Part shown: positions 2,892-62,500 of the stretch, in pieces | Layout: each line of letters opens with the position of its first letter | Position numbering within the stretch: the first letter of the stretch is position 1 | Source: a virus | DNA length: 64,000 nucleotides | Strand: one strand, 5' to 3' | UHGV virus genome: UHGV-1383976 | The notes under the pieces: model-generated | Told to the model about the DNA's origin: nothing | Databases searched by the model: none | What the model saw: the letters and a program-made list of their open reading frames with translations, nothing else | Position numbers and translations under genes: made by a program

Positions 2892-2945
2892 CTTTTTACT
2901 TCTTTTATGTTATACTATTTATATATAGAGTAAAGGAGGAATAGT

Positions 2946-3326
2946 ATGTATCTGTCTGAAGTAATACAATTTCAAACTGTATATAATACACTTGCTGAAA
3001 TAAAACTTCCATTCAAAATTGCCTATAAGCTAAACAAAATAAACGAAGAAGCTCAAAAAGAGGCTGAGTGGTATAACAAAGAGTTTGATGCAATTTTGAA
3101 TGAATATGGAATGAAAGATGAGGATGGCCATTTCGTGCGGGCTAATGATGGAATGTCAATAAAAATACAAGATGGTCGCGAAAACGAATGTCAAGCAAAA
3201 ATACAGGAACTCGCACGAGTTAATGTTGAACTTAAATCGCCAAAGCTCACAATGGATGATTTGTCGCAAATGGACGCCGAGCTAACTGTGCGCGAAGTCG
3301 CAATTCTAATGAATTTCATAGAATAA
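2946..3326 (+). CDS. Hypothetical protein
   Basis: 126-aa ORF with a strong RBS (AAGGAGG) 7 nt upstream. A rho-independent terminator follows. Confidence 0.5.
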   Translation: MYLSEVIQFQTVYNTLAEIKLPFKIAYKLNKINEEAQKEAEWYNKEFDAILNEYGMKDEDGHFVRANDGMSIKIQDGRENECQAKIQELARVNVELKSPKLTMDDLSQMDAELTVREVAILMNFIE

Positions 3327-3334
3327 ATAAAAAG

Positions 3335-3368
3335 TCCCGAAGAGGCATAATGCTTCTTCGGGATTTGT
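3335..3368 (+). terminator. Rho-independent terminator
   Basis: GC-rich hairpin tcccgaagaggc...gcttcttcggga followed by a T-rich tract. Confidence 0.6.
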
Positions 3369-3493
3369 GCATTTTGTTCAGTTTATTCTGAGATAATTGA
3401 GTAAATTGCTGAATTTCCTTTACGCTTACCAATAAAATGTCTAATAAGTCCACTAGTGCTACTTCCATATGAAGAAACAAAGGAGGTAGTAAA

Positions 3494-3841
3494 ATGAATC
3501 CTTTTCAAACCAATACCGTGCAGCCACAAAATAGATTTACGCCATCTATGTTTATGACGCCGCAAGGTAATGTTTATGTCATTGATAGCCCACTTGAAGT
3601 AGCCAATGTTCCTATGGGGACGGGTTTATCTGTCGCAATTTGTCCTAATGAAAGTCTTATGTATCTCAAGATGTATCAAAATGGTGCGCCATCAATTACG
3701 GCTTATAAACTCGCTCCCTATGAACAGCCAACTGGCAATAGTAATTTAGACAAAGTTCTACAAAACATAACTGATAGACTTGACAAAATTGAAAAATCTC
3801 TTTTACCTAAAAAGGAGGAAAAAATAAATGACCTTCTCTAA
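3494..3841 (+). CDS. Hypothetical protein
   Basis: 115-aa ORF with RBS AAGGAGG upstream. Overlaps the next ORF by 14 nt. Confidence 0.45.
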   Translation: MNPFQTNTVQPQNRFTPSMFMTPQGNVYVIDSPLEVANVPMGTGLSVAICPNESLMYLKMYQNGAPSITAYKLAPYEQPTGNSNLDKVLQNITDRLDKIEKSLLPKKEEKINDLL

Positions 3842-4067
3842 TCCTTTACAGACACTTATGCAGATGGGAAGAGGCTCAATGATGAACGCTCTTCCCAATA
3901 TACAAAAACCAGCTCAAAATCCCCCGATAAATATACAACAATTGAAACAAGCACTCCCGCAACTCACTAAAGAAAATTATGCGCAATTGGTTTCTCAGGC
4001 CCGCGCGCAAGGAATTAGTGAGCAAGACATTGAGTCAGGACTCAATTTTCTTTTACAATTAAATTGA
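3828..4067 (+). CDS. Hypothetical protein
   Basis: 79-aa ORF with RBS AAGGAGG upstream. Translationally coupled to the previous ORF. Confidence 0.4.
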   Translation: MTFSNPLQTLMQMGRGSMMNALPNIQKPAQNPPINIQQLKQALPQLTKENYAQLVSQARAQGISEQDIESGLNFLLQLN

Positions 4068-4121
4068 TTTACGTCCGGGGTAAGTCAATTTATATTATAA
4101 ATTTTTAGGAGGTTTTTTGTA

Positions 4122-4820
4122 ATGAACGAAGGACTTAGTGCTAGCGATATTCTCGCTTTGACACGTGATAACGATGATGGTATGAATAATGCTTGGAATA
4201 ACCCTTTTATTTATCTTGTTTGGTTGGCATTGTTAGGTGGCAATGGCGGACTTTTTGGCCGTCGTGATGACTGCGCAACGCAAGGCGCAATAACTCGTTC
4301 CGACCTGTTCGAAGGTTTCAACAACCAAGATGTAAATGGCCAACTTCGCGGTATTACTAATGGTATATGTGATGGCTTTTATGCTATCAATAGCGAGATG
4401 AAAGATGGCTTCTATGGCAACCAAGCCACAATCAAAGATGGCTTTTATTCCACTCAAGCAGCGCTTGCTGAAAACAGATTTGCTCAGCAGCAATGCTGCT
4501 GTGAGACGAACCGCAATATTGACAACGTTCGCTCCGAAGCCTATAAGAATACTTGTGAAATTACCACCGCAATTCATAATGAAGGTGAAGCAACTCGTGC
4601 TCTCATAACCGCAAATACAATGCAAGAACTCCGTGATAAGCTCGCTGATCGCGACAGAGATTTGCTTTATGCAAACTTCCAGAACTCTCAGCAGCTCCAG
4701 AACGCATATTTAGTCGATACTTTGCGTCCTGTTAGTAGACCTGCATATATTACCTGCAGTCCATATCAATCTGTTAACTCTTGTGGTACATCTAGCTGCG
4801 GCTGTGGCTATGGCATTTGA
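4122..4820 (+). CDS. Hypothetical protein with Cys-rich segments
   Basis: 232-aa ORF with RBS TAGGAGG. Contains QQCCCE and a C-terminal CGTSSCGCGYG cluster. Confidence 0.5.
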   Translation: MNEGLSASDILALTRDNDDGMNNAWNNPFIYLVWLALLGGNGGLFGRRDDCATQGAITRSDLFEGFNNQDVNGQLRGITNGICDGFYAINSEMKDGFYGNQATIKDGFYSTQAALAENRFAQQQCCCETNRNIDNVRSEAYKNTCEITTAIHNEGEATRALITANTMQELRDKLADRDRDLLYANFQNSQQLQNAYLVDTLRPVSRPAYITCSPYQSVNSCGTSSCGCGYGI

Positions 4821-4864: not shown

Positions 4865-5281
4865 ATGGTAGATAGTTATAATATTCAATCTCAAACTGTT
4901 GATGTAAATGGCTTACTTACATTTCCTATCAATTCCATATTGACAGGCTGTACCGTTAGCCATACAGCAGGTAGCACAACATTCTCACTCAATAAGCCCG
5001 GACTTTATTTTGTATCATTCAATGCTGTCGGTACAATTTCAGGTGCTACTGCTGGTGCGATAACCGTTCAACTCCAGAATAATGGCACAGCAGTTCCGGG
5101 TGCGCTTAGCTCAGACACATCCGCATCAACAACTGACGTTCGTAATCTTTCCTTCACAAAAGTAATTCGAGTCAATCCATCTTGCTGTGCGGTCAATAAT
5201 CAAGCTAATCTGACATTTGTAAATGCAGGGCTTGGCGCGATTTACACCAATGCTAACGTGGTAATTACCAAGCTAGCGTAA
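4865..5281 (+). CDS. Hypothetical protein (possible virion protein)
   Basis: 138-aa ORF, Thr/Ser/Ala/Gly-rich and beta-rich. Confidence 0.45.
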   Translation: MVDSYNIQSQTVDVNGLLTFPINSILTGCTVSHTAGSTTFSLNKPGLYFVSFNAVGTISGATAGAITVQLQNNGTAVPGALSSDTSASTTDVRNLSFTKVIRVNPSCCAVNNQANLTFVNAGLGAIYTNANVVITKLA

Positions 5282-5290
5282 GGAGGCAAT

Positions 5291-5593
5291 ATGGTAAAAT
5301 ATAAAGCGCTTTATAAAGCTATGTATGATGACTTGAAAGATAGTGAAATGATGATTTGCTATGCTGATGAAATTCGTGAAAATAAAGAAGACGCGGCTTT
5401 GGCCGATGTTATAGCTAAGTATGCGCAATACCGTCTGAATCATTTTATGGAATTTCATAAGTTGTTTGAGAATGAAGCATCAAAAGAACCACAAGTCAAT
5501 GCCGAATCGGTAGCCTATTGTATGTGGGATACAACCCATGAAATGATGATGGAATGGTATGGTTCCATCAAACAAAAAATAGAAAAATTCTAA
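5291..5593 (+). CDS. Hypothetical protein
   Basis: 100-aa ORF with RBS AAGGAGG. A bidirectional terminator lies at its end. Confidence 0.5.
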   Translation: MVKYKALYKAMYDDLKDSEMMICYADEIRENKEDAALADVIAKYAQYRLNHFMEFHKLFENEASKEPQVNAESVAYCMWDTTHEMMMEWYGSIKQKIEKF

Positions 5594-5600
5594 TTTTGGA

Positions 5601-5632
5601 AGAGGAGCGTAATGCTCCTCTTTTTTATTCCC
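5601..5632. terminator. Bidirectional rho-independent terminator between convergent genes
   Basis: Hairpin agaggagcgtaatgctcctct followed by TTTTTT, located between the + strand block and the - strand gene ending at 5625. Confidence 0.6.
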
Positions 5633-6368
5633 AAGAAATCATTTTTCGGTTTGGCGCACACTGCCGGACAGCATAAGTCCCAATTCCTATCGCGTCAGCC
5701 TCATCTTCGCTAACGGAAACATCATACCATTGCTTTGCTAATAAACGCATAGAACTTTTTCGGTCACTCCTCGTGCGCCCTTTGACTCCGCACTCTTGGC
5801 GCCAAACCCCTGTATGGCATAAAGTGTAAGCAATTCCTAACTCAAAGCAACACTCAATCAAAATTCCCTGAAGCCACGCGAGTTGTTGAAATACATCAAC
5901 ACCCATCGTGCGCTTACCTTCACTTTCATTCTGAAGTTGAATGTTCTCTAAGGCCACTAAATCTGGCTGCCAATTATAAAGCATATTGACGAGCCAAACT
6001 TTTACAGCATTGCTGCGCGCAATTGTATCGGGCAATTGTGTTTGATAAGTTCCATATTTGATAAGCTCTTTGTCATCAAAAATTGAAAATCCGGTAATAT
6101 GTGTCGCTTGGTCGAGAGCGAGCACACGAAAAATATTTTTCTTTTTTGGAACAATTTTAGATGTTGCAGCCTCTGTTTTATATACATTAGCTTCACACGT
6201 CGGGCATATGCGTTTTGCACGAAGTTTTTTCCAAGGTGCAAATACGGCATGACCTTCGGGACATTCAAACCGCATTTCTGTTTCAAGATTGGTATATGTA
6301 TCGCTTACGACTTTCCAGCCGTCTTGCTCTAATTCTTCTCTAATTGAATCTAGCGAAATTTTTGCCAT
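5625..6368 (-). CDS. RuvC-like Holliday junction resolvase with N-terminal zinc-finger region
   Basis: The motif RVLALDQATHITGFSIFD resembles the RuvC N-terminal catalytic Asp motif. N-terminal CxxC...CPTC. Acidic residues lie downstream. Confidence 0.45.
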   Translation of the reverse strand: MAKISLDSIREELEQDGWKVVSDTYTNLETEMRFECPEGHAVFAPWKKLRAKRICPTCEANVYKTEAATSKIVPKKKNIFRVLALDQATHITGFSIFDDKELIKYGTYQTQLPDTIARSNAVKVWLVNMLYNWQPDLVALENIQLQNESEGKRTMGVDVFQQLAWLQGILIECCFELGIAYTLCHTGVWRQECGVKGRTRSDRKSSMRLLAKQWYDVSVSEDEADAIGIGTYAVRQCAPNRKMISWE

Positions 6369-7312
6369 TAGAACTTTCCAGTAGAACCGAAACCGCCCTG
6401 ACGGTCTTCCGCTCCATAAAGAGTTATATCATTTACTTCTTGCCAGCTTATTTTAGGAATTTCGGCAAGAACTAACTGGGCGATTTTTTGACCTTTTGTT
6501 ATGTAGACAGGTGAACCATGGAGAATTGATGTGATGATAGGGTGATGAGTTTCATTATCAAAATCATACGCTATGTCTTTGATCGCTGGCTCATTATTTT
6601 CGAGGATTATGCCAATCTCATCATGGAATCCTTCATCAACTGTGCCTATTCCATTCGCAACACGCATATGGGTGCGAGCTGACAGACCAGACTTTGCGCG
6701 CACTTGTATTTCATAGCCTTTTGGTAAAGCCACTCTCAAGCCCGTTGGAATTATTTTGATTTCGCCGGGGTCAATCGTATAATCGTCGAGTGCAAATACG
6801 TCAAGGCCACTGTCAGTTGTATGAGCATATTCAGGAAGTTTTACTTCATCAGACAATCGCTGTATAGGCACACTTACAACACGACGTGCAATTCGCTCAT
6901 TTTCACCAAGCGCATTTGCAACTATACCAAGAATGGATTTGAAGAAATCTATTTTGATTTGAGAAACTTTGCCATCCAAATTGGTTTGGAGTCTTTCTGC
7001 AATGTCGGCCAGTTCATCTATCATATCTTCAGCCGCGACACCTTGAATTGAAAGGTTCTGCGCAATACCAAGCTGAATCTGTGGGTCTTTGAAAGATGTG
7101 TAGAAATTCTCTAGTACATCTGCAGCAATTACCATAAATTTCTCATCATCAAGACTCATCAGACTCGAAAACGCTTTGACGTATTCATCAGCTTCATCAT
7201 CGTCAATCAGATTTCCAAAGAAGAAAGAAAAGGCTTCGCGCAAGGTCTGTTCGACGTCTATTTCTTCAGGCATTTCAATCGGCTGGCCTGAAATATCTAC
7301 TATATCACTCAT
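6368..7312 (-). CDS. dut: dUTP diphosphatase (trimeric dUTPase) with long N-terminal extension
   Basis: The C-terminal half carries dUTPase motifs (AKSGLSAR, GTVDEGFHDEIGIIL). About 170 aa of N-terminal sequence have unknown function. Confidence 0.7.
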   Translation of the reverse strand: MSDIVDISGQPIEMPEEIDVEQTLREAFSFFFGNLIDDDEADEYVKAFSSLMSLDDEKFMVIAADVLENFYTSFKDPQIQLGIAQNLSIQGVAAEDMIDELADIAERLQTNLDGKVSQIKIDFFKSILGIVANALGENERIARRVVSVPIQRLSDEVKLPEYAHTTDSGLDVFALDDYTIDPGEIKIIPTGLRVALPKGYEIQVRAKSGLSARTHMRVANGIGTVDEGFHDEIGIILENNEPAIKDIAYDFDNETHHPIITSILHGSPVYITKGQKIAQLVLAEIPKISWQEVNDITLYGAEDRQGGFGSTGKF

Positions 7313-7530
7313 TCAAGTCCCTCCCATATGGTGCTATATACCATTGTACAAGAAACAACTTCGCAACTGTCAATTATTTCGCCCTTAGACTTCTTATCTT
7401 TGTGAGTGTAGCCGCACTTGGCTATCTGATAACCTCTCTCGCGAGCTTCAGTGCGAAACTTTTCCATCAAATCCTTTGCTTCGTTTTCACTTTCGACTCT
7501 ATATTCCTTAGTTTCTTTGAGCAGTATCAT
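7309..7530 (-). CDS. Hypothetical small protein
   Basis: 73-aa ORF translationally coupled (ATGA overlap) with dut. Confidence 0.4.
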   Translation of the reverse strand: MILLKETKEYRVESENEAKDLMEKFRTEARERGYQIAKCGYTHKDKKSKGEIIDSCEVVSCTMVYSTIWEGLE

Positions 7531-7621: not shown

Positions 7622-8908
7622 TCAATCTTTATTTTTCAAAACCAGATTGAGAATTATACCAGCCATAAGAGCAAGTGCAGTAGCAGAAATTGAGAAATCA
7701 GTTCCACCAATAGCAAGGCCGCTTATACCGAGAGAAAGAACCGCCGAAACAATTATCAGATTCTTTTGTCCATTCAGATCAACTTGTTGAAGCATCTTTA
7801 TACCACTACAAGCAATAAAACCATAGAGAACAATAGCTGCACCAGCAAAAACACAAGCTGGGATTGAACTGATAAAAGCTTGAACCGGAACGAAAAACCC
7901 CATAAGTATTAGAATAAGAGCGGCTGTCCCACTAACCTTAGCTGAAGCTACTTTACTAAAGCCCACACACGCGACGCCCTCTCCATAAGAGCAAGCGCCA
8001 AGTCCACCAAGTAAACCACTAACAGCATTTGCAAGTCCTTCACCAGCGAAGATGCGGTTAAGGCCGGGCTTCTGATATAGGTCAATACCAATTATGCCGC
8101 CAAGAGCAGCATGGTCGCTAAGGGCCTCCATCATTGCACTTATTGTATAAGCAATAAACAAAAATATCAAAGGAATAAGCTGTGGCAATTCAATGAATTT
8201 GTACCAATTGACATGAGAGATAGCGAGGTCAGGCAAAGCAAAAAGTCTCATATTTTCAAAAATACTAAAATCTACAACAGGAAAAATATTTGTAATTGTA
8301 AGCGCAACCGCATAAGTATAACCAACTAAAGTGCCAAGCAGAAACGGGAGAATCTTTATAATTCCTTTTGCATAATGTGAAAACAGTGCAATTGCTATCA
8401 TTGTGATGATAGCTATACTAACACCCCACATATTAGTTTCGCCATTTATCTGAACATAAGTCAAGATAAAAGGCATAAGATTAATACCTATAACAACCGT
8501 GACCGCGCCGATCAATGATTTGGGGAAAATTTTATATATATTTTCAACGGGAACACGACTAAAGATAAGACCAAAAATTGTATAAACAACCCAAATTACA
8601 AAACAACCAATAATTGCACCTTCATAACCACAAGAAGCAAGTGCAATTAGGATAGGAGCGACGAAAGCACCAGAATTCGAGATGAACATCGGAGACTGGC
8701 CTTTTGTTATAAGAATATAGGCCAAAGTACCGCAACCCGCGCCGACAAGTGCACCAGATATGGCAACGCCGCAAATATTGGCAATAAGCACTGTTGCCAC
8801 AAAAACTGATAACATCATCTGAATGGCAAACAGAATCAGCTTGCCAAAAGGAATTCTATCTCCAAGTGAATAAATCATTCGTGAGTCGCCTCCCAGTCTT
8901 GAAGCCAT
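7622..8908 (-). CDS. Nucleobase:cation symporter (NCS2 / xanthine-uracil permease family)
   Basis: 428 aa with about 12 predicted TM segments. N-terminal GKLILFAIQMMLSVFVATVLIA resembles the NCS2 signature region of uracil/xanthine permeases. Confidence 0.65.
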   Translation of the reverse strand: MASRLGGDSRMIYSLGDRIPFGKLILFAIQMMLSVFVATVLIANICGVAISGALVGAGCGTLAYILITKGQSPMFISNSGAFVAPILIALASCGYEGAIIGCFVIWVVYTIFGLIFSRVPVENIYKIFPKSLIGAVTVVIGINLMPFILTYVQINGETNMWGVSIAIITMIAIALFSHYAKGIIKILPFLLGTLVGYTYAVALTITNIFPVVDFSIFENMRLFALPDLAISHVNWYKFIELPQLIPLIFLFIAYTISAMMEALSDHAALGGIIGIDLYQKPGLNRIFAGEGLANAVSGLLGGLGACSYGEGVACVGFSKVASAKVSGTAALILILMGFFVPVQAFISSIPACVFAGAAIVLYGFIACSGIKMLQQVDLNGQKNLIIVSAVLSLGISGLAIGGTDFSISATALALMAGIILNLVLKNKD

Positions 8909-9432
8909 TTTATTACGTCTTCAATATTATCCACTAAAACGCCACCTTGTTTAATAAGGCCAACAGTATAAAGGTTCTGATAACAAAACTGACTCTCACC
9001 AATATCAAGACGCATTATTTCGGCTTTGGCGTCATTGTATGTGCGACTTGCCATACGACTATCGGTACAAATACCGATAATCATTTTCTTGTCTCCGCGC
9101 GTGATCTTTTCGTGAAATTTGCCAATTTCTGCACTTGTTCCAGAAGGAATCACATCGCCATCAATGCAAGCAACAAGGACATCAGTTTCATCCAAGCGCG
9201 CATTATCTCCATCCGCAATCTGCCAAGAGCTTGCACATTTTGTTTTATCATTTATTTCTTTATTTTCCAGAGGATTATAGAGGTTGATTCCGGGAATAGC
9301 ATCACGAATTTGTGCGCTCCATTTCTCATTTCTCATTCTATCTCCTTCACAAAAGATTGGCCCCGCCAAATAAACATTCATTCGTCTATATCCTCCAAAT
9401 AAATTATTTTTTTCTCTAATTGCTTTGCCCAT
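8875..9432 (-). CDS. Nucleoside 2-deoxyribosyltransferase family protein (NDT/Rcl-like)
   Basis: The motif VYLAGPIF resembles the YFGAGWF motif of NDT enzymes, and GTSAEIGKF is a nucleophile Glu motif. Confidence 0.55.
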   Translation of the reverse strand: MGKAIREKNNLFGGYRRMNVYLAGPIFCEGDRMRNEKWSAQIRDAIPGINLYNPLENKEINDKTKCASSWQIADGDNARLDETDVLVACIDGDVIPSGTSAEIGKFHEKITRGDKKMIIGICTDSRMASRTYNDAKAEIMRLDIGESQFCYQNLYTVGLIKQGGVLVDNIEDVIKWLQDWEATHE

Positions 9433-9779
9433 TCAATTTCACGTTTTGTGGATTCACCAATATAGCCATTCTTGTTTATTACAAAAATCATATCAGACAT
9501 TGAAATTTTAGCTAGATGCATACGGTCGAGCTGTTGTTTTTCTTTCTCTGTCATTGTATCACCGTAATGCCCATAAATCTCAGGACTTAGGACAATATAG
9601 CCTGCAATTGTAAATTCTTTGCGATATTGCTGAAACAAAGGAAGAAACTTAGTACTGCCACACAATGTAATAATGGGAAACTCATTTTGGTAGTTCCGCA
9701 CTAAAATTTTATTAGTTATTTGTTGTCCCACATTCATCCTCGATTCCCATTGCTGCACTAGCTGCTTTATAGCCCTCAA
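9378..9779 (-). CDS. NDT-superfamily-like small protein
   Basis: 133 aa. PIITLCGSTKF and IGESTKREIEWA resemble the NDT/DUF4406-type fold. The match is weaker than for the neighbouring gene. Confidence 0.35.
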   Translation of the reverse strand: MRAIKQLVQQWESRMNVGQQITNKILVRNYQNEFPIITLCGSTKFLPLFQQYRKEFTIAGYIVLSPEIYGHYGDTMTEKEKQQLDRMHLAKISMSDMIFVINKNGYIGESTKREIEWAKQLEKKIIYLEDIDE

Positions 9780-9966
9780 TATAGCCCATTGTATGTTCTT
9801 TATTCAGCCTTTCTTGAATATTCTTATAAACTTGCGGGAATAAACTTGCTATCACAAACTCAAAAGAAAGTTCAAGCTCATCTGTGTTTCCATTATACGT
9901 TTTTTCTACTTGCTCAATTACTCGTTTTATGTGCGTGAATCGAACCTTATCTAAATTTTCGTCCAT
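9712..9966 (-). CDS. Hypothetical small protein
   Basis: 84-aa ORF that overlaps its neighbours. Confidence 0.3.
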   Translation of the reverse strand: MDENLDKVRFTHIKRVIEQVEKTYNGNTDELELSFEFVIASLFPQVYKNIQERLNKEHTMGYIEGYKAASAAMGIEDECGTTNN

Positions 9967-10544
9967 AATGTCTCCTTTCCATAATGTAGGGTTAAAGCGC
10001 CAAATGAATTACCTAATGCAGCAACTAAAATTTTTCGGAAGGAAATTGGTATAGAGCCTGCCGCTGAATAAAACATATTGGCAATGCAGTGATCAAAACC
10101 ACAATAAACAAATAAAAACACAGGGAGCATTATAGCAAGAAGGGACTTTGTTCGTTTGAATCCTTCAACTGCGCAATAGACACATACTCCGCACAAGTAG
10201 GAGCTAAAGAGTAAATTGGCATATGGCATTTCTGCTTTTGAAGAAGCAACTGAGTCGGCCAAAAATGGATTTACCCACCACACCAATAAGCCCAATAGCG
10301 CAGCACCAGCAAAATTTGCAATAAGCATTATACTTAAATCAATAAGATCTGCGCTATCACCTACATAAGCAATACGGCCAGTATAAAGTGGAAGGCTAAG
10401 TTCTAAAATTGAAACAAGCCCAAAGCTAAATAACAGTGCACCCAATATCTTATTTTGGCTAATGAGGTTGGCATATCCGCCAACCCCAATTAGCATACCT
10501 GCAAAGAAAGCAGGAATTATATTATAATTATCTTTTTTTATCAT
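9951..10544 (-). CDS. Small integral membrane protein, possible nucleoside/vitamin-type transporter
   Basis: 197 aa with 5-6 predicted TM helices. Its own consensus promoter lies at 10547-10582. Transporter family not assignable by eye. Confidence 0.45.
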   Translation of the reverse strand: MIKKDNYNIIPAFFAGMLIGVGGYANLISQNKILGALLFSFGLVSILELSLPLYTGRIAYVGDSADLIDLSIMLIANFAGAALLGLLVWWVNPFLADSVASSKAEMPYANLLFSSYLCGVCVYCAVEGFKRTKSLLAIMLPVFLFVYCGFDHCIANMFYSAAGSIPISFRKILVAALGNSFGALTLHYGKETLWTKI

Positions 10545-10546
10545 AT

Positions 10547-10582
10547 TTATATTATATCAAAATTTTATTGAAAAATCAAATT
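10547..10582 (-). promoter_or_regulatory. Consensus phage promoter (TTGATT-N17-TATAAT)
   Basis: Minus-strand reading AAATTTGATTTTT-N-GATATAATATAAATA. The -35 is at 10574-10579 and the -10 at 10551-10556, with a 17-nt spacer. Confidence 0.55.
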
Positions 10583-11145
10583 TCGAGTTCGCAAATGTGC
10601 GCTTTTTCCAAAGTTTGGTGAACATCTATAAGGCGCTGATTACGAGAGCCACGGAATGGCAAAGTTAAATCACGCTGCTCAAGAATAAAAGGACCATCTA
10701 CCACAACATCGCAAAGTTGGAGTGTTGTTGAAATGCGGCGAGGGGGATTGAAATCCTCCCAGTCCAAGTGGTAGCCAGTATAGAGCCAAATGTCCTTATC
10801 AGGAAATTTTTCTTTGATTTCCCTTAACAACTTATAGATAGTATTGTTGTTTTGTGGCTCAAGTGGATGACCGCCAGAAAGAGTAATGCCTTTTACCCAA
10901 GGTTTAGACAGGGCGTCAAACAATTCTTCTTTTGCGGCATCATCAAAAGGCTTACCTGCACAAAAGTCCCAAGTTTCAGGATTATGACATTCTTTACAAT
11001 GGAGGGAACATCCGGATACCCAAAGGACGACACGTACACCAAAGCCATTTGCGATGTCGCATTTTGTTATTTTGATATAATTCATTATGATTCTCCCAAA
11101 TGTAAGACGCGCTCTTTTATTTCTTGGGTACGGCCAAAATTCCAA
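10576..11145 (-). CDS. nrdG: Anaerobic ribonucleotide reductase activating protein (radical SAM)
   Basis: GCSLHCKEC is a Cx3Cx2C radical-SAM cluster motif. About 190 aa, located directly downstream of nrdD. Confidence 0.8.
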   Translation of the reverse strand: MEFWPYPRNKRARLTFGRIIMNYIKITKCDIANGFGVRVVLWVSGCSLHCKECHNPETWDFCAGKPFDDAAKEELFDALSKPWVKGITLSGGHPLEPQNNNTIYKLLREIKEKFPDKDIWLYTGYHLDWEDFNPPRRISTTLQLCDVVVDGPFILEQRDLTLPFRGSRNQRLIDVHQTLEKAHICELEI

Positions 11146-13241
11146 AAATTAGAGCCAATATAGCCGCAAGTACGACGTGCAACATTCAAGGTAGAATGGT
11201 CGCGATTACCACAATTTGGACAATACCATTCCATATTATCATCAATAAGAATTTCGCCATCAAAACCACACTTCTGACAGTAGTCACTTTTTGTGTTAAG
11301 TTCAGCATACATTATGTTATCGTAAATAAACCTATAAAGCTCCAAGACAGCAGGAATGTTGTTTTGTAAATTAGGAACCTCTACATAGCTTATTGCACCA
11401 CCCGGACTAAGTTTTTGAAACTCAGCCTCAAAAGCAAGTTTATCAAAGGCATTGATTTCTTCAAAAACAGGGACATGATAACTGTTTGTAATATAATTAC
11501 GATCATGCTCATCAAGTTTAATAAATATATCATTACCAAATCGCTGCTTCAAACAACGTGCAAACTTATATGTTGTACTCTCAATAGGAGCGCCATAAAG
11601 AGAATAATCAATTTTTTCGACAGCTTTCCATTCAGCACACTTCTCATTTAAACGTGCCATTACTTCAAGAGCAAAAGGTTTTCCATCAGTTTGTGTATGA
11701 CTATGTCCTGTCATATATTTTACGCACTCATAAAGACCAGCATACCCAAGTGAAATTGTTGAATAGCCATTATGAAGCAACTTATCAAGCCTCTCACCTT
11801 TTTCAAGGCGGGCGAGTGCGCCATTTTGCCAAAGAATAGGGGCAACATCACTAAGGGTTCCCTCAAGACGTTTATGCCTAAGCTGAAGTGCTTTGTGGCA
11901 CAGTTCAGTGCGCTCTTCAAATAACTGCCAAAACTTATCAATATTGCCGCCTGAGCTAAAAGCCAAATCTGGTAAACTGATTGTAACAACACCTTGGTTG
12001 AAACGACCGTAGTATTTTGGGTTATTATTTTCATCAATATAAGGAGTTAGAAAACTTCTACAACCCATACAAGGATAGCAACGCCCCTTACCGGTTTTAT
12101 CTTTTTTTAATTCCAGCATCATTTTTTCAGAAATAATATCGGGGACAAGGCGTTTTGCTGTACATTTTGCTGCGAGTTCTGTTAAATAAAAATATTTGTC
12201 GCCCGGCCGTAAATTATCAGGTTCAAGGACATAAAGTAACTTAGGAAATGCAGGTGTGATATAAACGCCTTTTTCATTCTTGAAGCCTAAAATACGTTGC
12301 TTAATAAACTCCTCTATCAACATTGCCAATTCATTCTTATATTCTTCTGTTTCATTTAAATACATAAACACAGAAAGAAATGGTGCTTGGCCATTTGTTG
12401 TTGTCATTGAATTGACTTGATAATTGAAAGTCTGAACAGCATCAACGACTTCTTTTTTTGTATCAAGTTGCGCATACTTGCACGCACTTTCATCATCAAA
12501 GCCCCAATCCTTATACTTTTTAAGATAAGCCTCATAAGAACTTCTAACAAAAGGAGCAAGGTGCGTAAGAGTAATAGTGGCACCGCCATACGAAGAAGAA
12601 GCAACACCAAGAATTACTTGCGTTGCAATCGTAGAAGCTGTTAAAATTCTGTGTGGCTTCTCAATTTTAACATTGTTGATTACAGTTCCATTTTGAAGAA
12701 CATCTTCCAAGTTGATAAGATCGCAATTATGGAGCGTTTTCTGACCAAAATAATCAATATCGTGGAAGTGTATAATGCCTTTCTCGTGAGCATCTACAAT
12801 TTCTGGAGGAAGAAGAAATCGTTTAGAGATATCTTCACTAACAATACCTGCCATGTAATCGCGCTGTGTTGTTACAAGATCAGCGTTTTTGTTTGAATTT
12901 TCCGCGTTCCAATAATCACTTGTGCCGCTAATTAGTTCAAGTAAATCTTTGTCTGTTGTATTACCTTCGCGCGCAAGCCTATGTTTATACCTATATTCAA
13001 CATAGCGCTCAGCTACGTCTTTTCTTGAACTAGCCATAAGCCGCTCAACTACTAAGTCTTGAATTTCTTCAACACTCAAATCTCTATTAAGTTTTTCTAT
13101 TTGAGTGGCCACCATTCGTGCCTTGTTTTTGGCATAAGATGTTTCACGTCCATCTACTTCCAAAAAGGCTTTGAGAATGGCAACTCTAATTTTCTCTTTA
13201 TCAAATGGAACCGTAGTTCCATCACGTTTTATGACGTACAA
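11085..13241 (-). CDS. nrdD: Anaerobic ribonucleoside-triphosphate reductase (class III RNR)
   Basis: 718 aa. C-terminal glycyl-radical motif RRTCGYIG, a C-terminal Zn ribbon (CQKCGF...CPNCG) and an N-terminal ATP-cone-like region. Confidence 0.85.
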   Translation of the reverse strand: MYVIKRDGTTVPFDKEKIRVAILKAFLEVDGRETSYAKNKARMVATQIEKLNRDLSVEEIQDLVVERLMASSRKDVAERYVEYRYKHRLAREGNTTDKDLLELISGTSDYWNAENSNKNADLVTTQRDYMAGIVSEDISKRFLLPPEIVDAHEKGIIHFHDIDYFGQKTLHNCDLINLEDVLQNGTVINNVKIEKPHRILTASTIATQVILGVASSSYGGATITLTHLAPFVRSSYEAYLKKYKDWGFDDESACKYAQLDTKKEVVDAVQTFNYQVNSMTTTNGQAPFLSVFMYLNETEEYKNELAMLIEEFIKQRILGFKNEKGVYITPAFPKLLYVLEPDNLRPGDKYFYLTELAAKCTAKRLVPDIISEKMMLELKKDKTGKGRCYPCMGCRSFLTPYIDENNNPKYYGRFNQGVVTISLPDLAFSSGGNIDKFWQLFEERTELCHKALQLRHKRLEGTLSDVAPILWQNGALARLEKGERLDKLLHNGYSTISLGYAGLYECVKYMTGHSHTQTDGKPFALEVMARLNEKCAEWKAVEKIDYSLYGAPIESTTYKFARCLKQRFGNDIFIKLDEHDRNYITNSYHVPVFEEINAFDKLAFEAEFQKLSPGGAISYVEVPNLQNNIPAVLELYRFIYDNIMYAELNTKSDYCQKCGFDGEILIDDNMEWYCPNCGNRDHSTLNVARRTCGYIGSNFWNFGRTQEIKERVLHLGES

Positions 13242-14581: not shown

Positions 14582-17500
14582 TTACTCACCCCTTACGTGC
14601 GTTGTAATGCGACCATATTCATCAATGTCTGTTATTTCTTCGATTAGATGATATGGAGTTCGGGAGTATTTCTTTGCCAGAAACCCGTCATCCCTTCTAA
14701 TACCACACACAATAATCTTGTTGCCGCGTGAAAAGATCGATTTTTCAATAATATGCTTCTTTCCATCTGGCTCTCTTTCAGAAATTTGTTTGTCATAATT
14801 CGCAAATGCTTCTCCAAAAATTTTGACTTGAACAACACCATCTTTTGTCAATAACGAAACAATCTTTTTTGCTTTATCTCTATCCAACACAGTCCCGCAA
14901 ATACGATGTATTCTATAAATCGGAATCGGCGCGCTATCACTATCTTTGCCGCGTGGTTTGAAATAAGTTTCAACGTCAGGCTGCTCTTTCAGCTTGAAAA
15001 AGTCTGAAAAACCTTGAGCGCGCTCATCAATATTTTGCAATTCATGCTCATGGAAATAACACGAAACACTATCCATTTCCCACTTACTTATCGAGCCAAG
15101 ACAATACTTATTCCATACATCTCGCGTCAACCGCTCATTCACGGTGTCTAATAACTCGTCGTGATTTTCTTTTATCCATTTGCGAACATTATCCATATAT
15201 TTCTTATAGATTTTATCCCAAGCTGTGATACTAATTTTGAAACCACTTTCAGTTTCATCACTTGTACTCAAACAGTCGAGTGAGAAGTTTTTATCGAGAA
15301 AATTCAACGCGATATTATCCAGTCCATAGAACGAGGAATCTAACTTCATTTTTTTGAGGTATTTCGTGAAATTATAAACACGACGTTCAAAGTCAAGTTT
15401 TTCTGGTAGCATCCCAAAATTTATCAACATTGCCATATTTTGAAGGGTAATGCGTTTTTTTGTATCACTAATTAGGCCGACATATTCACGCATTAGATTT
15501 ACTCTATCGCCAAAGGCATCAAAAGCGCCGCATTTTATAAGGTTTATCATTTGTGGCTTGTTAATTTTGACTTTAGAGAGAAAGTCTGGAATTGATGTGT
15601 AGGGACGATTGGCAATTATGGATTTGACGATGTCTTCGCCGACCTTGACGATGCCGCTCATACCGTAGCGAATTGTTGAGTTTTCAACATCAGGGGAGAA
15701 GGTAAAAGTGGATTTATTGATATCAGGAGGAGAAATAGAAATCCCGGCCATTCGCATCTTACCAATCGCCGACGCAATTTTACCATAGTTGGTTGTTTTG
15801 ACTTTTTTCTTTTTCTTCTTTATATCAATTTTTTCTTCTTCTTCTTCATCATCGTCGTCATCATCTTCGGTGTCATCGACAAATTCTTCAATACAGTTAT
15901 TATAACTATATTCAATAATGTTTTCTGACGTTTCATCTTCATCATCATTTGACTCATTGCCGCCACTATCGCTAATCAAACACGCGCAATTCCAAAAAAT
16001 TGTTGGAAAACGATATGCAAGATTCATTTCCTGCAAAGCTACAAGCGAATAGGAAAGAGTGTGTGCGCGGCAGAATGAATATCCTCTCTGGACTCTGAAC
16101 AAAACATCCCATACATAATGGGCAAGAGTCATATCACAACCTTTTTCTTTTGCATTTTCAAAATAGGCTTTTTCACATTCATCAAAGAGTTTACCTTGTT
16201 TTTTTGCAATCGCCTTTCGACATTTATCCGCAAAAGTCAGATTATTTCCTCCAAGCCTTTCTTCCTGCAGAAGCTGCATCATTCCTTCTTGACTCTCACA
16301 TATACCACTCGTTATCGCATTATGTCCAATTAACCATTTTATATCTTCATTTTTTAATCCATATTGAATCATTTCGTCTTGCCATTCATTGATATTCAAA
16401 CGATATCTTGCCCACATATCAAGTGGCTGCTCGGCTCCTTTTTCAGGAGCCATTAGACGAATTACTGAATTCAAAACAGCTAATTCACTAACGTTTTTAG
16501 GATGAGTTAGTGCTATTCCAGAAATGCCACTTGGCTGTTCCATTTGGAATAAACTGGATATCTTATGATTCCAAACCATTTCCCACATTTCTGGTGCAGT
16601 TCGTTCAAGATTATATATGCCAATTACACTTTCATAAGTTTCACGTAATGTTGGCTTTCGCTCTATATAACCATAATCACATAATAAGTCTAGCTCATTA
16701 TGTATTTTATCAAGGGCTTCAATTGACAACATATCAATTTTGATTAGCGATGCATCCTCCGCATCGTGAAGCTCAAAAGCCGTGATGACTGTGCCATCAG
16801 GCGCGCGAGTTAACGCTGTCGATTCCGTAAAAGGCTCGTCAACGAAGATTACTCCACCGGCGTGAACACCAATGCCGCAAATTAGCCCCTCAATTTTTGA
16901 AGCAACTTCCCAAACATCGCTGTAGGTTTTCATTGCTTCAACAAATTGTTTTACTGGCTTAAAACCTTTGTCTTCATCGCCCTTTATACATTGAGTAAGT
17001 GAGCGAAGTTGCCCACGATCGGCTGGAATCAGAGACGCCAAATAGGATGCTATATCAACATCAATTCCCAAGCCGCGGCAGGCCGTTAAAATTGCCGATT
17101 TAGATTTTTCTGTTTTGAATGTAATAACATTCGCAACTCTGTCTTCTCCATAAAACTCACGGAACTTCTGTAAAACTTGTGCGCGACGTCCACCTTCAAT
17201 ATCGGTATCGACATCCAATACTGAAGCTCGTTCGGGATTAAGAAAACGCCAATGAAATACTTGAGTTTCTTCTTGGACTGGATTTATCTGTGTTATATCC
17301 AATGCATATAACAAAGTAAATCCTGCACCCGAACCACGCCCCGGCCCGACAAGAGAACCAGCTTCCCAACATAAATCAATATTTTTCTGCAGATTCAGAA
17401 AATAAGTCGACCAATGTGTATGATTCGTTATTGACGAACGCCATGTATCATCAAGACAAATATTTATCTCATCATACGCTCGTTTGTTCTGCAAGCCCGG

Positions 17501-18571
17501 CTTCCGCTGGATGCCATCAATAATCGCCCAAACCAGTTTTCTATCACCCCAATAATCAGAGTTATAGAAAGTTTCCAAATAAGGGATTTCTTGTTTGAGA
17601 ATATCATATGCTGCCTCATCTTCAGGAAAAGTTTTCCAATAAAGTTCTGGAATTTTTAAGGGCCGCATTAGTGAAAAATCCTCACACATTTCACCTATTT
17701 TGAGAATATTGCAATATGCGAGTTGAAGTTGCTCTTCAGTGAAATAGTTGAAATACTCTTCTATTTCTTTTGTATCCATAAGATACGTAGTTGCATAGAA
17801 ATCATCTACTTCTCGCTCACCATTTTGTGCATTAAGATATGCTTTATGAATCGCGCAGTCTTCTTTTTTGAGATAATGGCTGTCAGTTGTTATAACATAG
17901 GAAATGTCATATTTAACTGATAATTCAAGCAACTTCTTATTTACATAAATCTGCTCTTTGTTATAACTTGGTTGCATTTCAAAAAAGAAATTACCGTGCC
18001 CAAAAAGTTTATCCAAAGACAAAATCCAGTTTTCAATTTTGCCATTGAGTGAGCTATCATTTCGCGCTTTGAGAAGCTGAGTAGGAAGACAGCCGCCAAG
18101 ACAAGCTGTCATTCCCACAATATGCCCCGGATTGGCTCCCACGATTTCAAACAAATCACTATAATAAGTTGGCATACGACGCATACCTCGCGCCATATAA
18201 CTACGCAATCCTGCGCGAGTAGATAATTCTCTAATTTGTTTATGCCCGATTGCATCTTTAGCTAACAAGATAAAATGATAATATTTATCTTGTCCCGCAA
18301 TAAAATTCGATGCGTTTAACCCATTTCGACAAAGATAAATTTCATTTCCTTGAATGAATTTGAAATCAGGACATTTTTCTTTTACTTTTTTATAATACTT
18401 TTCTGCCTTAATCGCGCCAGATATTGATTCATGGTCTGTAAGAGCGACGACTTTATGACCTAACTCGATGGCGCGATCAATTAGGTCTGAGACTTTTATT
18501 ATACAGTCTCGAAGCCTTTCATTAGAATAATCCGAATGATTATGTAGCGATCCGGGATACGGAATATTCAA
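14582..18571 (-). CDS. DNA polymerase III alpha subunit (DnaE/PolC family, N-terminal PHP domain)
   Basis: 1329 aa. The N-terminal PHP motif HNHSDYS...LTDHESISG matches the Pol III alpha PHP domain. Contains an acidic/Lys low-complexity insert (DDDDDDEEEEEKIDIKKKKKK). Confidence 0.85.
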   Translation of the reverse strand: MNIPYPGSLHNHSDYSNERLRDCIIKVSDLIDRAIELGHKVVALTDHESISGAIKAEKYYKKVKEKCPDFKFIQGNEIYLCRNGLNASNFIAGQDKYYHFILLAKDAIGHKQIRELSTRAGLRSYMARGMRRMPTYYSDLFEIVGANPGHIVGMTACLGGCLPTQLLKARNDSSLNGKIENWILSLDKLFGHGNFFFEMQPSYNKEQIYVNKKLLELSVKYDISYVITTDSHYLKKEDCAIHKAYLNAQNGEREVDDFYATTYLMDTKEIEEYFNYFTEEQLQLAYCNILKIGEMCEDFSLMRPLKIPELYWKTFPEDEAAYDILKQEIPYLETFYNSDYWGDRKLVWAIIDGIQRKPGLQNKRAYDEINICLDDTWRSSITNHTHWSTYFLNLQKNIDLCWEAGSLVGPGRGSGAGFTLLYALDITQINPVQEETQVFHWRFLNPERASVLDVDTDIEGGRRAQVLQKFREFYGEDRVANVITFKTEKSKSAILTACRGLGIDVDIASYLASLIPADRGQLRSLTQCIKGDEDKGFKPVKQFVEAMKTYSDVWEVASKIEGLICGIGVHAGGVIFVDEPFTESTALTRAPDGTVITAFELHDAEDASLIKIDMLSIEALDKIHNELDLLCDYGYIERKPTLRETYESVIGIYNLERTAPEMWEMVWNHKISSLFQMEQPSGISGIALTHPKNVSELAVLNSVIRLMAPEKGAEQPLDMWARYRLNINEWQDEMIQYGLKNEDIKWLIGHNAITSGICESQEGMMQLLQEERLGGNNLTFADKCRKAIAKKQGKLFDECEKAYFENAKEKGCDMTLAHYVWDVLFRVQRGYSFCRAHTLSYSLVALQEMNLAYRFPTIFWNCACLISDSGGNESNDDEDETSENIIEYSYNNCIEEFVDDTEDDDDDDEEEEEKIDIKKKKKKVKTTNYGKIASAIGKMRMAGISISPPDINKSTFTFSPDVENSTIRYGMSGIVKVGEDIVKSIIANRPYTSIPDFLSKVKINKPQMINLIKCGAFDAFGDRVNLMREYVGLISDTKKRITLQNMAMLINFGMLPEKLDFERRVYNFTKYLKKMKLDSSFYGLDNIALNFLDKNFSLDCLSTSDETESGFKISITAWDKIYKKYMDNVRKWIKENHDELLDTVNERLTRDVWNKYCLGSISKWEMDSVSCYFHEHELQNIDERAQGFSDFFKLKEQPDVETYFKPRGKDSDSAPIPIYRIHRICGTVLDRDKAKKIVSLLTKDGVVQVKIFGEAFANYDKQISEREPDGKKHIIEKSIFSRGNKIIVCGIRRDDGFLAKKYSRTPYHLIEEITDIDEYGRITTHVRGE

Positions 18572-18599: not shown

Positions 18600-18635
18600 A
18601 TATATTATATCAAAAATTAGCCTAAAAGTCAAACT
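18600..18635 (-). promoter_or_regulatory. Consensus phage promoter upstream of the polymerase gene
   Basis: Minus strand TTGACT (18627-18632 on +) - N17 - TATAAT (18604-18609), with extended GATATAATATATATA. Confidence 0.55.
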
Positions 18636-19717
18636 TAAAAGCTCCACTCCGCGTTTTCGACTTCAACATCTACGATTTGCAATTGGGGGGTGTAATTTCC
18701 TAACCATTCATTAACATTGGGTTTACCCACAATTGTTAAACACATTTCAGGCCATTTATGAAGCTTTTCAATCAAGTCTTTTGCACGGAACTTTATGTAG
18801 GTAATTCCATTTTTTTCAATTCGTATTGTATCTTGATTCTTGCCGATTATTTTTACATCATCGGGTTTTATATAGAGGTTTGTTATCGCTATAAGACTCT
18901 GAGGATTATTTTGACCCCAAACTCTTTCGTAGCGTGCCAAATCAAAAATAATGTTGCTTATATCACTATCACTTGCCTTGCGAACGAAATCGACGTCATA
19001 GTTATTATTACCAAAGTCATAAGATGCCAATTGGGTATTAGAAAGATTCAGTAGTTCATTGCGGCTGTTGGCTGGAATAGCAAACCCAGCAGCGTTAGCG
19101 TGCCCTTGCACATAGTCAAACAATGACGTATCTAACAAATAGTCTTTGAACGACGTGAGCGCACTCTGCGAAAGTCCTCTAATACTTCCCTTTATCATTC
19201 CATCTGAGCCTTCGCGTCCTATCATTGTTGGCTTATGGTATCGCGCGCTAAGTTGCGTGGCAATTAGACCATTCAGCTCAGGAGGAAAGTCATCATCGTC
19301 ATCAAGTTTAACAAACAAAATTTTATTTTCTAGCAAATCATACTTGTGTATCTTATACTCAAGTTGCTCGGTTGCTTTTTCTTTTGCCTTATCTTGATGC
19401 GACTTTGCATTTGTACATTCGCGCGTGCTTTCAATTGCGAGCTTTTCAAGTGTTCCTTTTGCCCCGCGCTTGCCACTTGGCACAAGTGTTTCACCCATAA
19501 CAACTGCACGATAAAGGCGCTCTTTTTCCTCTTGAGAACCTACACGAATCATTGCATTTATCAATGGTGTTATGTAAAATGCAACAGTTGTCGGATTGAT
19601 CTCACCGCCCATTGAGTAGGACTGTTTTTCAACAAGAGTTTTGAGAAAAAAGTTTTGTATGTTAGAACAACCACGCTGAACAATAAATTGATTTTCATAA
19701 GACAACATACTCATCAT
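18635..19717 (-). CDS. RecJ-like ssDNA exonuclease, C-terminal part (DHHA1 region)
   Basis: The motif VQGHANAAGFAI resembles the DHHA1 GGGH motif. Its N-terminus (MMSMLSYENQFIV) continues the RecJ motif IV region that ends the upstream DHH ORF. Confidence 0.6.
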   Translation of the reverse strand: MMSMLSYENQFIVQRGCSNIQNFFLKTLVEKQSYSMGGEINPTTVAFYITPLINAMIRVGSQEEKERLYRAVVMGETLVPSGKRGAKGTLEKLAIESTRECTNAKSHQDKAKEKATEQLEYKIHKYDLLENKILFVKLDDDDDFPPELNGLIATQLSARYHKPTMIGREGSDGMIKGSIRGLSQSALTSFKDYLLDTSLFDYVQGHANAAGFAIPANSRNELLNLSNTQLASYDFGNNNYDVDFVRKASDSDISNIIFDLARYERVWGQNNPQSLIAITNLYIKPDDVKIIGKNQDTIRIEKNGITYIKFRAKDLIEKLHKWPEMCLTIVGKPNVNEWLGNYTPQLQIVDVEVENAEWSF

Positions 19718-47144: not shown

Positions 47145-47232
47145 GCCCCATCTTCAGTTCTATAGCTGGTGAAGATGGATAGGCGATGAAGTATAGCAAT
47201 AATATGGCATGAGAACTATGATAGTGTTTCAT

Positions 47233-47322
47233 GAGAGCGTAACTCAGTCGGTAGAGTTTTATAGCGTGAAGGGATATGCTATTGAATGCCCTTAGTCGCC
47301 AGTTCGAATCTGGCCGCTCTCA
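47233..47322 (+). tRNA. Aberrant tRNA-like gene (perfect acceptor, D and T arms; about 17 extra nt in the anticodon/variable region; no encoded CCA)
   Basis: Acceptor gagagcg/cgctctc, D-arm actcagtcggtagagt, T-arm gccagttcgaatctggc. The central 40 nt do not give a canonical 5-7-5 anticodon arm. A 5-bp atagc/gctat helix encloses a 12-nt loop. Confidence 0.4.
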
Positions 47323-47350
47323 TTAAAAATATATATGAAGAGGAATAGTT

Positions 47351-62446: not shown

Positions 62447-62454
62447 ATCTATGA

Positions 62455-62500
62455 AAACCCGCCTCGTTTTTAAAACGAACGGGGCGGGTGTTTCTATTTT
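62455..62500 (+). terminator. Rho-independent terminator between fibre genes
   Basis: Hairpin cccgcctcgtt...aacgaacggggcggg followed by a T-rich tract. Confidence 0.5.

Follow-up and report, generated by a model that had tools for sequence, protein, structure and literature searches.

A phage gene row joining a nucleobase permease, deoxyribosyltransferase-fold proteins, a formate-type anaerobic ribonucleotide reductase and a short FNT channel: a candidate operon for deoxynucleotide supply

In the UHGV virus genome UHGV-1383976, of which a stretch of 64,000 nucleotides was analyzed here (the window), genes for an anaerobic ribonucleotide reductase (NrdD) and its activase (NrdG) share a minus-strand cluster (7622-13241) with genes for a small membrane protein, two proteins of the nucleoside 2-deoxyribosyltransferase (NDT) superfamily and a nucleobase permease. 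The element carrying this cluster is a phage. Nucleotide-metabolism enzymes are well known in phages; complete secondary transporters are rare phage cargo. The locus raises the question of what its two transport proteins would bring into the infected cell, and whether the enzymes encoded beside them would use it. A reading made from the letters of the DNA (the sequence-only reading) had proposed a nucleotide-supply or salvage module, possibly one for installing a non-canonical base in phage DNA. The reading that we favor, with confidence about evenly balanced, is an operon that would supply deoxynucleoside triphosphates (dNTPs) from two imported inputs, a nucleobase for the NDT and formate for NrdD. 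The coupling of NDT and permease is the firmer part of this model; less firm is that of NrdD with the small membrane protein, which we found to be a channel of the FNT family.

According to our model, the operon would widen DNA-precursor supply in an anaerobic gut host. The permease, of the NCS2 (nucleobase:cation symporter-2) family, would bring in a free nucleobase by proton symport, and the NDT would transfer this base to the deoxyribose of another deoxynucleoside, e.g., from degraded host DNA; host or phage kinases would then phosphorylate the product. The second, 119-residue NDT-fold protein, whose gene is translationally coupled to that of the NDT, may take part in the same step, either as a partner subunit or as another enzyme of glycosyl transfer or hydrolysis. 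NrdG-activated NrdD would turn NTPs into dNTPs with the use of one formate per turnover, and the FNT channel encoded directly after nrdG would admit external formate as the reductant; the imported formate may also feed formate-dependent purine synthesis. All substrates, the direction of transport and the FNT-NrdD coupling are what we infer here. If the model is correct, the effect of such phages would extend past the processing of internal pools to the uptake of bases and formate by the infected cell from the gut lumen, and nature would offer in this locus a case of a virus that secures the reductant which its ribonucleotide reductase needs.

Each superfamily, and auxiliary nucleotide-metabolism genes of phages as such, are already known. 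Neither a nucleobase permease nor an FNT channel encoded by a phage was described in the literature that we searched. Megablast of the region against 50,697 deposited phage records gave no match, and tblastn against deposited phage genomes gave just two weak FNT matches (27-28% identity). What appears to be new, with no match in that literature or in deposited phage genomes, is a phage transport-coupled salvage unit joined to an anaerobic reductase and to a lineage-specific channel for its co-substrate.

The cluster is a compact row of overlapping genes

The sequence-only reading had described the permease, both NDT-superfamily proteins, the small membrane protein and NrdDG as clustered, and all of them do lie on the minus strand, near the positions first read. 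Their order is nrdD (11085-13241), nrdG (10576-11085), the 197-residue FNT channel with six transmembrane (TM) helices (9951-10544), an 84-residue conserved small protein that we call orf84 (9712-9966), the small NDT-fold protein (9378-9737), the 168-residue NDT (8875-9381) and the 418-residue NCS2 permease (7622-8878). Real starts lie inside the longest open reading frames (ORFs) of the NDT (ATG 9381, which shortens a 185-residue ORF to 168) and the permease (ATG 8878, which shortens 428 residues to 418). The NDT start overlaps the preceding stop codon as ATGA and has a GGAGG Shine-Dalgarno motif; the permease start overlaps the NDT stop in the same manner and has the motif GGGAGG. For NrdG and the small NDT-fold protein, too, the start lies inside the longest ORF. 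NrdG is 169 residues long from ATG 11085, as is the ORF of its relative in contig L002; this ATG forms a TAATG overlap with the stop codon of nrdD and is preceded by GGGAG. The 119-residue protein read from ATG 9737 is identical to database protein P0138, and orf84 shares 16 nt with the FNT gene and 26 nt with the small NDT-fold gene.

The sole gap in the row, 31 nt, separates nrdG from the FNT gene. A promoter-like site in this gap (TTGATT-17 nt-TATAAT with an extended TG; 10579-10551, minus strand) ends 7 nt ahead of the FNT ATG. The membrane protein had been credited with its own promoter and the site is indeed there, but promoter-like matches were no more common in the region than in shuffled sequence (31 versus 30.6), and a separate promoter for the FNT gene is therefore a possibility. 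No riboswitch or other known RNA element was found in the cluster at Rfam gathering thresholds.

When the window was compared with three sister phages, the permease had a ratio of nonsynonymous to synonymous substitution rates (dN/dS) of 0.06-0.08, the NDT one of 0.07-0.13, the small NDT-fold protein one of 0.01-0.11 and the FNT channel one of 0.11-0.13. The ratios ranged from 0.01 to 0.13 across five genes, within the range of neighboring core genes. The orf84 product, which has no Pfam, NCBIfam or PHROG match, gave 0.07-0.33; it is 92-95% identical in the sister phages and 40% identical in contig L118. The cluster genes are real, intact and under purifying selection.

The permease and NDT genes form a conserved unit in gut and rumen phages

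The region and the full row recur in three close relatives among the IMG/VR contigs (75-132 kb), and the core of the row is kept in many diverged contigs, which argues that the cluster is no chance juxtaposition. More than 2000 relatives of the permease were found in databases at E ≤ 1e-20. Identity is at least 68% in each of the best 120, and many of these lie on contigs of 100-420 kb. We examined the permease context in 47 distinct phage or phage-like contigs, 44 of which show both flanks. In 40 of these 44 the permease has an NDT homolog no more than about 1 kb away, mostly upstream and in some cases downstream, and identities across the sampled contigs are 54-98% for the permease and 39-98% for the NDT. 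The row NrdD-NrdG-small NDT-fold protein-NDT-permease occurs in 23 contigs, 22 of them identified by tblastn and one, L019, by Pfam; in L019 the same place is taken by a NrdD lacking the ATP-cone, with an HNH endonuclease, and an NrdG-like gene. Three types of NrdD have been swapped within this recurring row. Pfam-annotated gene calls revealed the same order after guanylate kinase in two further lineages. Divergence, the existence of two gene orders and repeated NrdD swapping argue for selection on the arrangement. Across a large clade of phages from gut and rumen, about 110-240 kb in size, permease and NDT genes are kept together as a pair that is usually joined to an anaerobic reductase, and in this respect the salvage module proposed from the sequence is supported.

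The permease had also been called very unusual cargo for a phage. This holds for deposited phage genomes, in which the best tblastn match is 34.5% identical and the matches look like host DNA or prophage flanks, but not for the large phages of gut and rumen metagenomes, in which the permease clade is common.

The NDT and permease sequences are consistent with base salvage

The 168-residue protein matches Nuc_deoxyrib_tr (PF05014) with 45.5 bits, above the gathering threshold (GA) of 28.8, phrog_1817 (E 1.8e-26) and the solved E. faecalis protein 7M5H, deposited as a nucleoside 2-deoxyribosyltransferase (E 7.6e-24). The Tyr of its YLAGPIF motif is kept in all phage homologs but one and the Glu of SGTxAEIG in all; both residues are also found in 7M5H and 7O62. 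By the roles of these residues in the NDT of L. leichmannii, the Glu would be the catalytic nucleophile, with the N-terminal Tyr as a further conserved active-site feature.

The 119-residue protein has structural similarity to solved NDTs (an NDT/TIR-like flavodoxin-type fold). Its match to DUF4406 (PF14359) reaches 19.3 bits, below the GA of 22, and when eight members of its family were scanned with this profile six scored below GA and two had no match. The family assignments made from the sequence were upheld above GA for Xan_ur_permease and Nuc_deoxyrib_tr, but only as a distant relation for DUF4406. The family of the 119-residue protein is large, unnamed and about 100 residues long, with 13 invariant polar or small residues that include C26, H57, D60, H74 and E100. 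Its bacterial context, one locus with a Xan_ur_permease gene 2 kb away and one miscellaneous island, gave no clear function. In some family members (P0141-P0146, alignment A1) the N terminus is extended by about 60 residues in which CxC/CHC motifs abound; this possible metal- or redox-binding domain has no Pfam match.

The permease matches Xan_ur_permease (PF00860) with 185.7 bits (GA 27) over profile positions 2-383 of 389, and E. coli UraA (3QE7) with E 1.9e-41 over residues 6-407 of 429; PHROGs files its family under 'unknown function'. In the 3QE7 structure uracil is bound by UraA residues E241 and H245 (TM8) and E290 (TM10). Permease residue E310 (TM10) corresponds to E290, with the neighboring Tyr and Gly kept. 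Within the phage clade E261 and D265 (TM8) and E310 are invariant and H266 is found in at least 90% of sequences. The permease resembles UraA and the NCS2 family in its full-length match, its TM10 Glu and the adjoining Tyr and Gly. It differs by scores below family cutoffs, an indel of seven residues in TM8, where an E...DH motif takes the place of E...H so that the alignment to E241/H245 is ambiguous, and Gly in place of both F73 and N291. We dropped an assignment of substrate through the UraA binding residues because of the ambiguous TM8 alignment; the permease may carry a pyrimidine or a purine.

Use of imported bases by an NDT-family enzyme with conserved Tyr and Glu, to make deoxynucleosides, resembles bacterial salvage by the Lactobacillus NDT/PTD enzymes and by Borrelia burgdorferi BB0426, the precedent for base plus NDT salvage (PMC2764106). 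The version in the window would differ in being phage-encoded and in uniting, in what appears to be one operon, the NDT, an NCS2 permease and a second small NDT-fold protein. A further difference is that Borrelia is without a ribonucleotide reductase, whereas the window NDT co-exists with one.

Several observations weigh against this half of the model. The counted loci are not phylogenetically independent. The permease falls below the NCBIfam cutoffs (NF007995, 204.6 versus 477; TIGR00801, 194.1 versus 291.8), and its binding-site signature is mixed. No deoxynucleoside kinase was found in the window. In addition, the Asp that precedes Gly in 7M5H (IDAG) and 7O62 (IDDG) is replaced by Pro or Gly in the phage NDT clade, which reads (I/L)PSG, PGIG or PPIG where a D-x-G-x-x-x-E motif would start. 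This Asp presumably contacts a sugar hydroxyl, and the sugar site of the phage enzymes may therefore differ.

The altered motif, unlike that of characterized NDT relatives, would also fit a permease that feeds ribonucleotide pools only (base to NMP by way of host phosphoribosyltransferases, then NrdD) and NDT-fold proteins that have some other task, e.g., hydrolyzing nucleotides or countering the nucleotide-based immunity of the host. The NrdDG row lies ahead of the permease in the 23 contigs, and the NDT fold is common to TIR and other nucleotide-processing immune domains, as this explanation would have it. We nevertheless regard it as improbable, since the NDT-permease pair is conserved also where NrdDG is not nearby (L009-L017, L125-L130 and L135) and since the two genes are translationally coupled. 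This coupling argues that the imported base would be the substrate of the NDT itself.

NrdD carries the motifs of formate-dependent reductases

NrdD is a class III (anaerobic) ribonucleoside-triphosphate reductase. It matches PF13597 with E 1.6e-178, contains ATP-cone and Gly_radical domains (63 bits for Gly_radical) and scores 862 bits against the E. coli-type equivalog NF006732 (cutoff 657). NrdG, a radical-SAM protein, scores 175 bits against TIGR02491 (cutoff 126) and matches PF13353 with E 2.1e-45. The best solved relatives of NrdD are the S. thermophilus (9D3X, 459 bits) and T4 (1H78, 377 bits) enzymes.

Enzymes of the NrdD1 group, such as S. thermophilus and T4 NrdD, take their reducing equivalents from formate (PMC12662201, PMC4390871, PMC4493059). 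The S. thermophilus, T4 and P. copri enzymes have each been reported to be formate-dependent (PMC12662201, PMC4390871, PMC11226230), and in P. copri NrdD, which requires formate, Asn435 replaces the third Cys (PMC11226230). Membership of this subtype was judged by a finger-loop Cys with Met two residues before it and by Asn rather than a third Cys (PMC4390871, PMC4493059, PMC11226230). The window NrdD keeps all T4 active-site motifs (NC of the first strand, the MGC finger loop and GRxNxGVVT). Its motifs NC, MGCRSFL and GRFNQGVVT align to T4 N78-C79, C290 and N311, and it has Asn at the site of the third Cys of thioredoxin-type enzymes. By these motifs we assign the enzyme to the formate-dependent (NrdD1) type. 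It resembles T4 NrdD/NrdG in being phage-encoded with an adjoining activase and in the match and motifs just described, and differs from it by its ATP-cone. To our knowledge T4 has neither a co-substrate channel nor a transport-coupled salvage unit after its reductase, unlike the window.

In sister phage _162796 NrdD has been exchanged for one that is only 34% identical, while the surrounding genes remain more than 91% identical. The replacement (L002) is closest to Prevotella copri NrdD (415 bits) and carries MGC and Asn. This enzyme is also of the formate type; the FNT gene has thus been retained beside two different formate-type reductases.

NrdD behaves as a swappable cassette: closely related phages carry T4/E. 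coli-type or P. copri-type enzymes, which are 34% identical to each other, and L019 has the third, cone-less type (2864-4699). In several relatives the NrdD match falls into two to four pieces, between which lie insertions of about 0.8-1 kb that are probably introns, inteins or homing endonucleases. Swapping or interruption was seen in L002 (NrdD at 5217-7463), L008, L108, L109, L116, L131 and L132 as well as in L019.

The small membrane protein is an FNT channel

The sequence-only reading had suggested the PnuC or VUT/YhhQ families for the 197-residue membrane protein. Profile, PDB sequence and fold searches instead identified it as an FNT-family channel, and the earlier identities were ruled out. 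Form_Nir_trans (PF01226; 80.6 bits, GA 34.6, E 1.5e-22) is the sole Pfam family at E ≤ 0.1, and the PDB sequence matches are to FNT channels only, with V. cholerae FocA and the C. difficile hydrosulfide channel (HSC) the best. An AlphaFold2 (AF2) model built on 18 homologs (pLDDT 84.7) has the six-TM FNT fold with broken TM2 and TM5. Foldseek comparison of the model with the PDB returned FNT structures only (HSC, FocA, NirC, PfFNT and LciA; TMq 0.70-0.84). One public copy of the protein is titled 'MAG TPA: Formate/nitrite transporter [Caudoviricetes sp.]'; PHROGs has no matching FNT family. With this identity the account of the locus shifts in the direction of formate, which NrdD enzymes of this type use as co-substrate.

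Pore residues of FocA are largely recognizable in the window protein. Thr55 (PLYTG) corresponds to FocA T91 and is invariant in both alignments (A2 and A3), and His152 (GFDHCIANMF) corresponds to H209 and is invariant in A2 and found in at least 90% of A3. K103, D151, N156 and N179 align to FocA K156, E208 (as Asp), N213 and N262, the Lys position being shifted by two in the HMMER alignment, and the equivalent of S210 is Cys, as in V. cholerae FocA. The pore His is necessary for formate uptake by FocA (PMC8914244).

The channel is not a FocA ortholog, as it scores 50.1 against a cutoff of 290.1 with TIGR04060 and 18.7 against 440 with NF008069. Its residue 17 aligns to residue 52 of V. cholerae FocA, so that about 35 N-terminal residues are absent. 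In FocA the N-terminal region is a cytoplasmic domain that couples the channel to PflB. An exhaustive search at E ≤ 1e-10 gave 882 clusters at 50% identity, the best 150 of which are all 180-244 residues long, and on sequence grounds we place the window protein in a distinct short-FNT subfamily. Compared with enterobacterial FocA (PMC8914244, PMC9380403), the window channel shares the FNT fold and the pore Thr, His, Lys and two Asn residues, and with V. cholerae FocA it has the S-loop motif FxHCIANMF in common. It differs in being about 80 residues shorter and in its linkage to NrdDG, whereas FocA is coupled to pyruvate formate-lyase (pflB).

The context of short FNT genes elsewhere was examined in 80 loci, found with the narrower FNT alignment as query in one genome per species; most belong to Clostridia, Bacilli, Prevotella and Methanomassiliicoccales of the gut and rumen. 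Once the neighbors were clustered, genes of purine and one-carbon metabolism stood out as the clearest functional themes. Five of the loci have the Pfam-confirmed order purE-purF-purM-FNT-purN-IMP cyclohydrolase, and in four the FNT gene adjoins that of formate-tetrahydrofolate ligase in two arrangements, also Pfam-confirmed. These neighbors, an independent context, link short FNTs as a subfamily with the use of formate for making nucleotides, and they imply that bacterial short FNTs at such loci probably serve formate uptake for purine synthesis. If the functions proposed for the phage locus hold, a role in formate uptake for nucleotide synthesis would be found for an uncharacterized subfamily that is widespread in gut anaerobes. 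The gut Clostridia loci (Ruminococcus, Oscillospiraceae and Faeciplasma) with the FNT gene in a pur operon or beside formate-tetrahydrofolate ligase are L060, L077, L079, L098 and L099 (FNT at about 6001-6600) and L090, L091, L104 and L106.

A rough estimate of the formate demand, for a 130-kb genome, a burst of 100, a 1-fL cell and all dNTPs made by way of NrdD, is about 2.6e7 formate molecules, or about 40 mM. A dedicated entry route would therefore be no absurd investment.

Other findings count against the formate half of the model. The FNT gene is absent from most phages that have the same NrdDG-NDT-permease row. It was found only in the window lineage and, 30% identical and 6 kb away, in L009/L010; it is a lineage-specific addition. 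Other phage-borne short FNTs do not lie beside NrdDG: in L004/L005 the gene follows those of a Hydrolase_2 cell-wall hydrolase and a 55-residue protein. A general bacterial linkage of nrdDG and FNT was ruled out, as neither nrdD nor nrdG occurs within 6 kb of the FNT gene in any of the 80 loci. In the fold comparison the hydrosulfide channel HSC scored best, and the equivalents of FocA D88 and N172 are Pro52 and Gly119. Among the nine FocA pore residues that have been listed, the D88 and N172 positions are 85-89% conserved among FNTs and not universal (PMC9380403); the N172 position is N or G among short FNTs.

These findings would fit a channel unrelated to NrdD, one that passes another anion (nitrite, hydrosulfide, lactate or bicarbonate), exports formate, or has an effect on pH or the membrane potential, e.g., in lysis timing; its place after nrdG would then be incidental. 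FNT substrates are not readable from sequence, and NirC, PfFNT and LciA are as good structural matches as HSC. We consider such a role unlikely, though less so than the other alternatives discussed here; what keeps it alive is the absence of the gene from most related operons, the lack of bacterial nrdDG linkage and the HSC-like best fold. Against it, the gene sits in a replication and nucleotide-metabolism block and overlaps the downstream salvage genes, was kept when NrdD was exchanged for another formate-type NrdD, and encodes the conserved pore His needed for FocA uptake (PMC8914244). Moreover, the clearest bacterial contexts of short FNTs are formate-consuming purine and one-carbon genes. 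Import of formate for NrdD is the role that we prefer.

A non-canonical base is a much less probable product

A different purpose had also been suggested for the cluster, that of installing a non-canonical base. The permease would import, or the NDT-type enzymes would make, an unusual base or deoxynucleoside that ends as a protective modification of phage DNA. Features that could be accommodated by this explanation are a divergent permease clade whose binding site is unassignable, a phage NDT clade with a changed sugar-site motif, and the fact that the window covers just about half of the genome. We scanned 62 window ORFs, almost all non-shadow ORFs of at least 110 residues, against Pfam or PHROGs. 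Nothing in the scan pointed to such a route: no base-modifying family was found in these ORFs, including the dpdA, purZ and thymidylate-synthase-like hydroxymethylase genes for which a search had been advised, and none of the DpdA/TGT, PurZ, thymidylate-synthase-like, glycosyltransferase or aminotransferase families is represented. The dUTPase and deoxynucleoside monophosphate (dNMP) kinase in the window are of ordinary type and occur with an EcoRI-like adenine methyltransferase. Known base-replacement systems of phages (DpdA/7-deazaguanine, PurZ/2-aminoadenine and hydroxymethyl-pyrimidine) share with the window the general theme of phage genes that act on bases or nucleotides, but their signature enzymes were not found in the scanned ORFs. 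We also know of no phage that installs a DNA modification through an NDT. This explanation therefore seems very improbable to us. The same low standing applies to its most specific form, in which the two NDT-fold enzymes would load a non-canonical base imported from the environment onto deoxyribose; although we hardly expect it, such a base-import route to modified DNA would have no known precedent. Supply of ordinary dNTPs is the reading that we retain.

Other features of the window and of related phages

The cluster lies in a replication block that contains genes for a DnaE-type polymerase, primase, DnaB, gyrase A and B, two ligase-like proteins, RNase H, the dNMP kinase, a UvrD-like helicase and a RecJ-like protein, the last divided by a GIY-YIG endonuclease; 12 tRNAs are present in the window as well. 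Downstream of the permease, on the same strand, a strong promoter-like site from the promoter scan (7616-7588) precedes orf73 (7309-7530) and the dUTPase gene (6368-7312). The dUTPase (NF001862, 111 bits, cutoff 103; phrog_135) has an N-terminal extension of about 150 residues, and in one sister phage (L003, 11233-13423) an insertion of about 1.25 kb breaks up its gene.

Several genes in the window are split or mosaic. The RecJ-like exonuclease is in two pieces on the minus strand, DHH at 20715-21344 and DHHA1 plus RecJ_OB at 18635-19717, separated by the GIY-YIG endonuclease ORF (19888-20622). The DnaE-type polymerase (14582-18571, minus strand) is a mosaic relative to L001, with a C-terminal third that is 94% identical and N-terminal two thirds that are 36% identical; relative to L003 it is 54% identical overall, with flanking genes more than 95% identical. 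On the plus strand, the EcoRI-like adenine methyltransferase appears to be split into N-terminal (46410-46961) and C-terminal (48582-49358) pieces, between which lie two tRNAs and a PD-(D/E)XK endonuclease (47649-48098). A group I intron (RF00028, 66.7 bits; 53466-53741, plus strand) overlaps the start of a LAGLIDADG endonuclease ORF (53520-54359), and just downstream is a PhoH-like fragment (54409-54942, plus strand) that matches profile positions 40-186 only; what lies at 53466-54942 looks like a gene split by an intron.

A full-length ROOL RNA (RF03087; 271.8 bits, gathering score 99.1) lies at 50412-51059 on the plus strand within the tRNA array, between tRNA-Trp and tRNA-Met. ARAGORN also called a 92-nt tRNA-Phe (47232-47323, plus strand) with its anticodon at position 37, for which the Rfam tRNA model was silent at the gathering score; this tRNA may contain an intron or be degenerate. 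Mtd_N matches were obtained for three ORFs, one of them weak (E 0.0066), and one ORF has a BclA_C match of 36.7 bits, below the GA of 38. The ORFs with these matches, at 58034-58417, 58398-59651, 62451-63398 and 4865-5281, all on the plus strand, encode probable receptor-binding or fiber proteins, and the BclA-like domain is a hint of a Firmicutes host. Finally, a radical SAM gene of 316 codons annotated by ENA in relatives of about 200 kb (L024, 3443-4393, and L025 over its whole locus) has nine in-frame stops under code 11 and is called in fragments by NCBI, which suggests stop-codon recoding in these phages.

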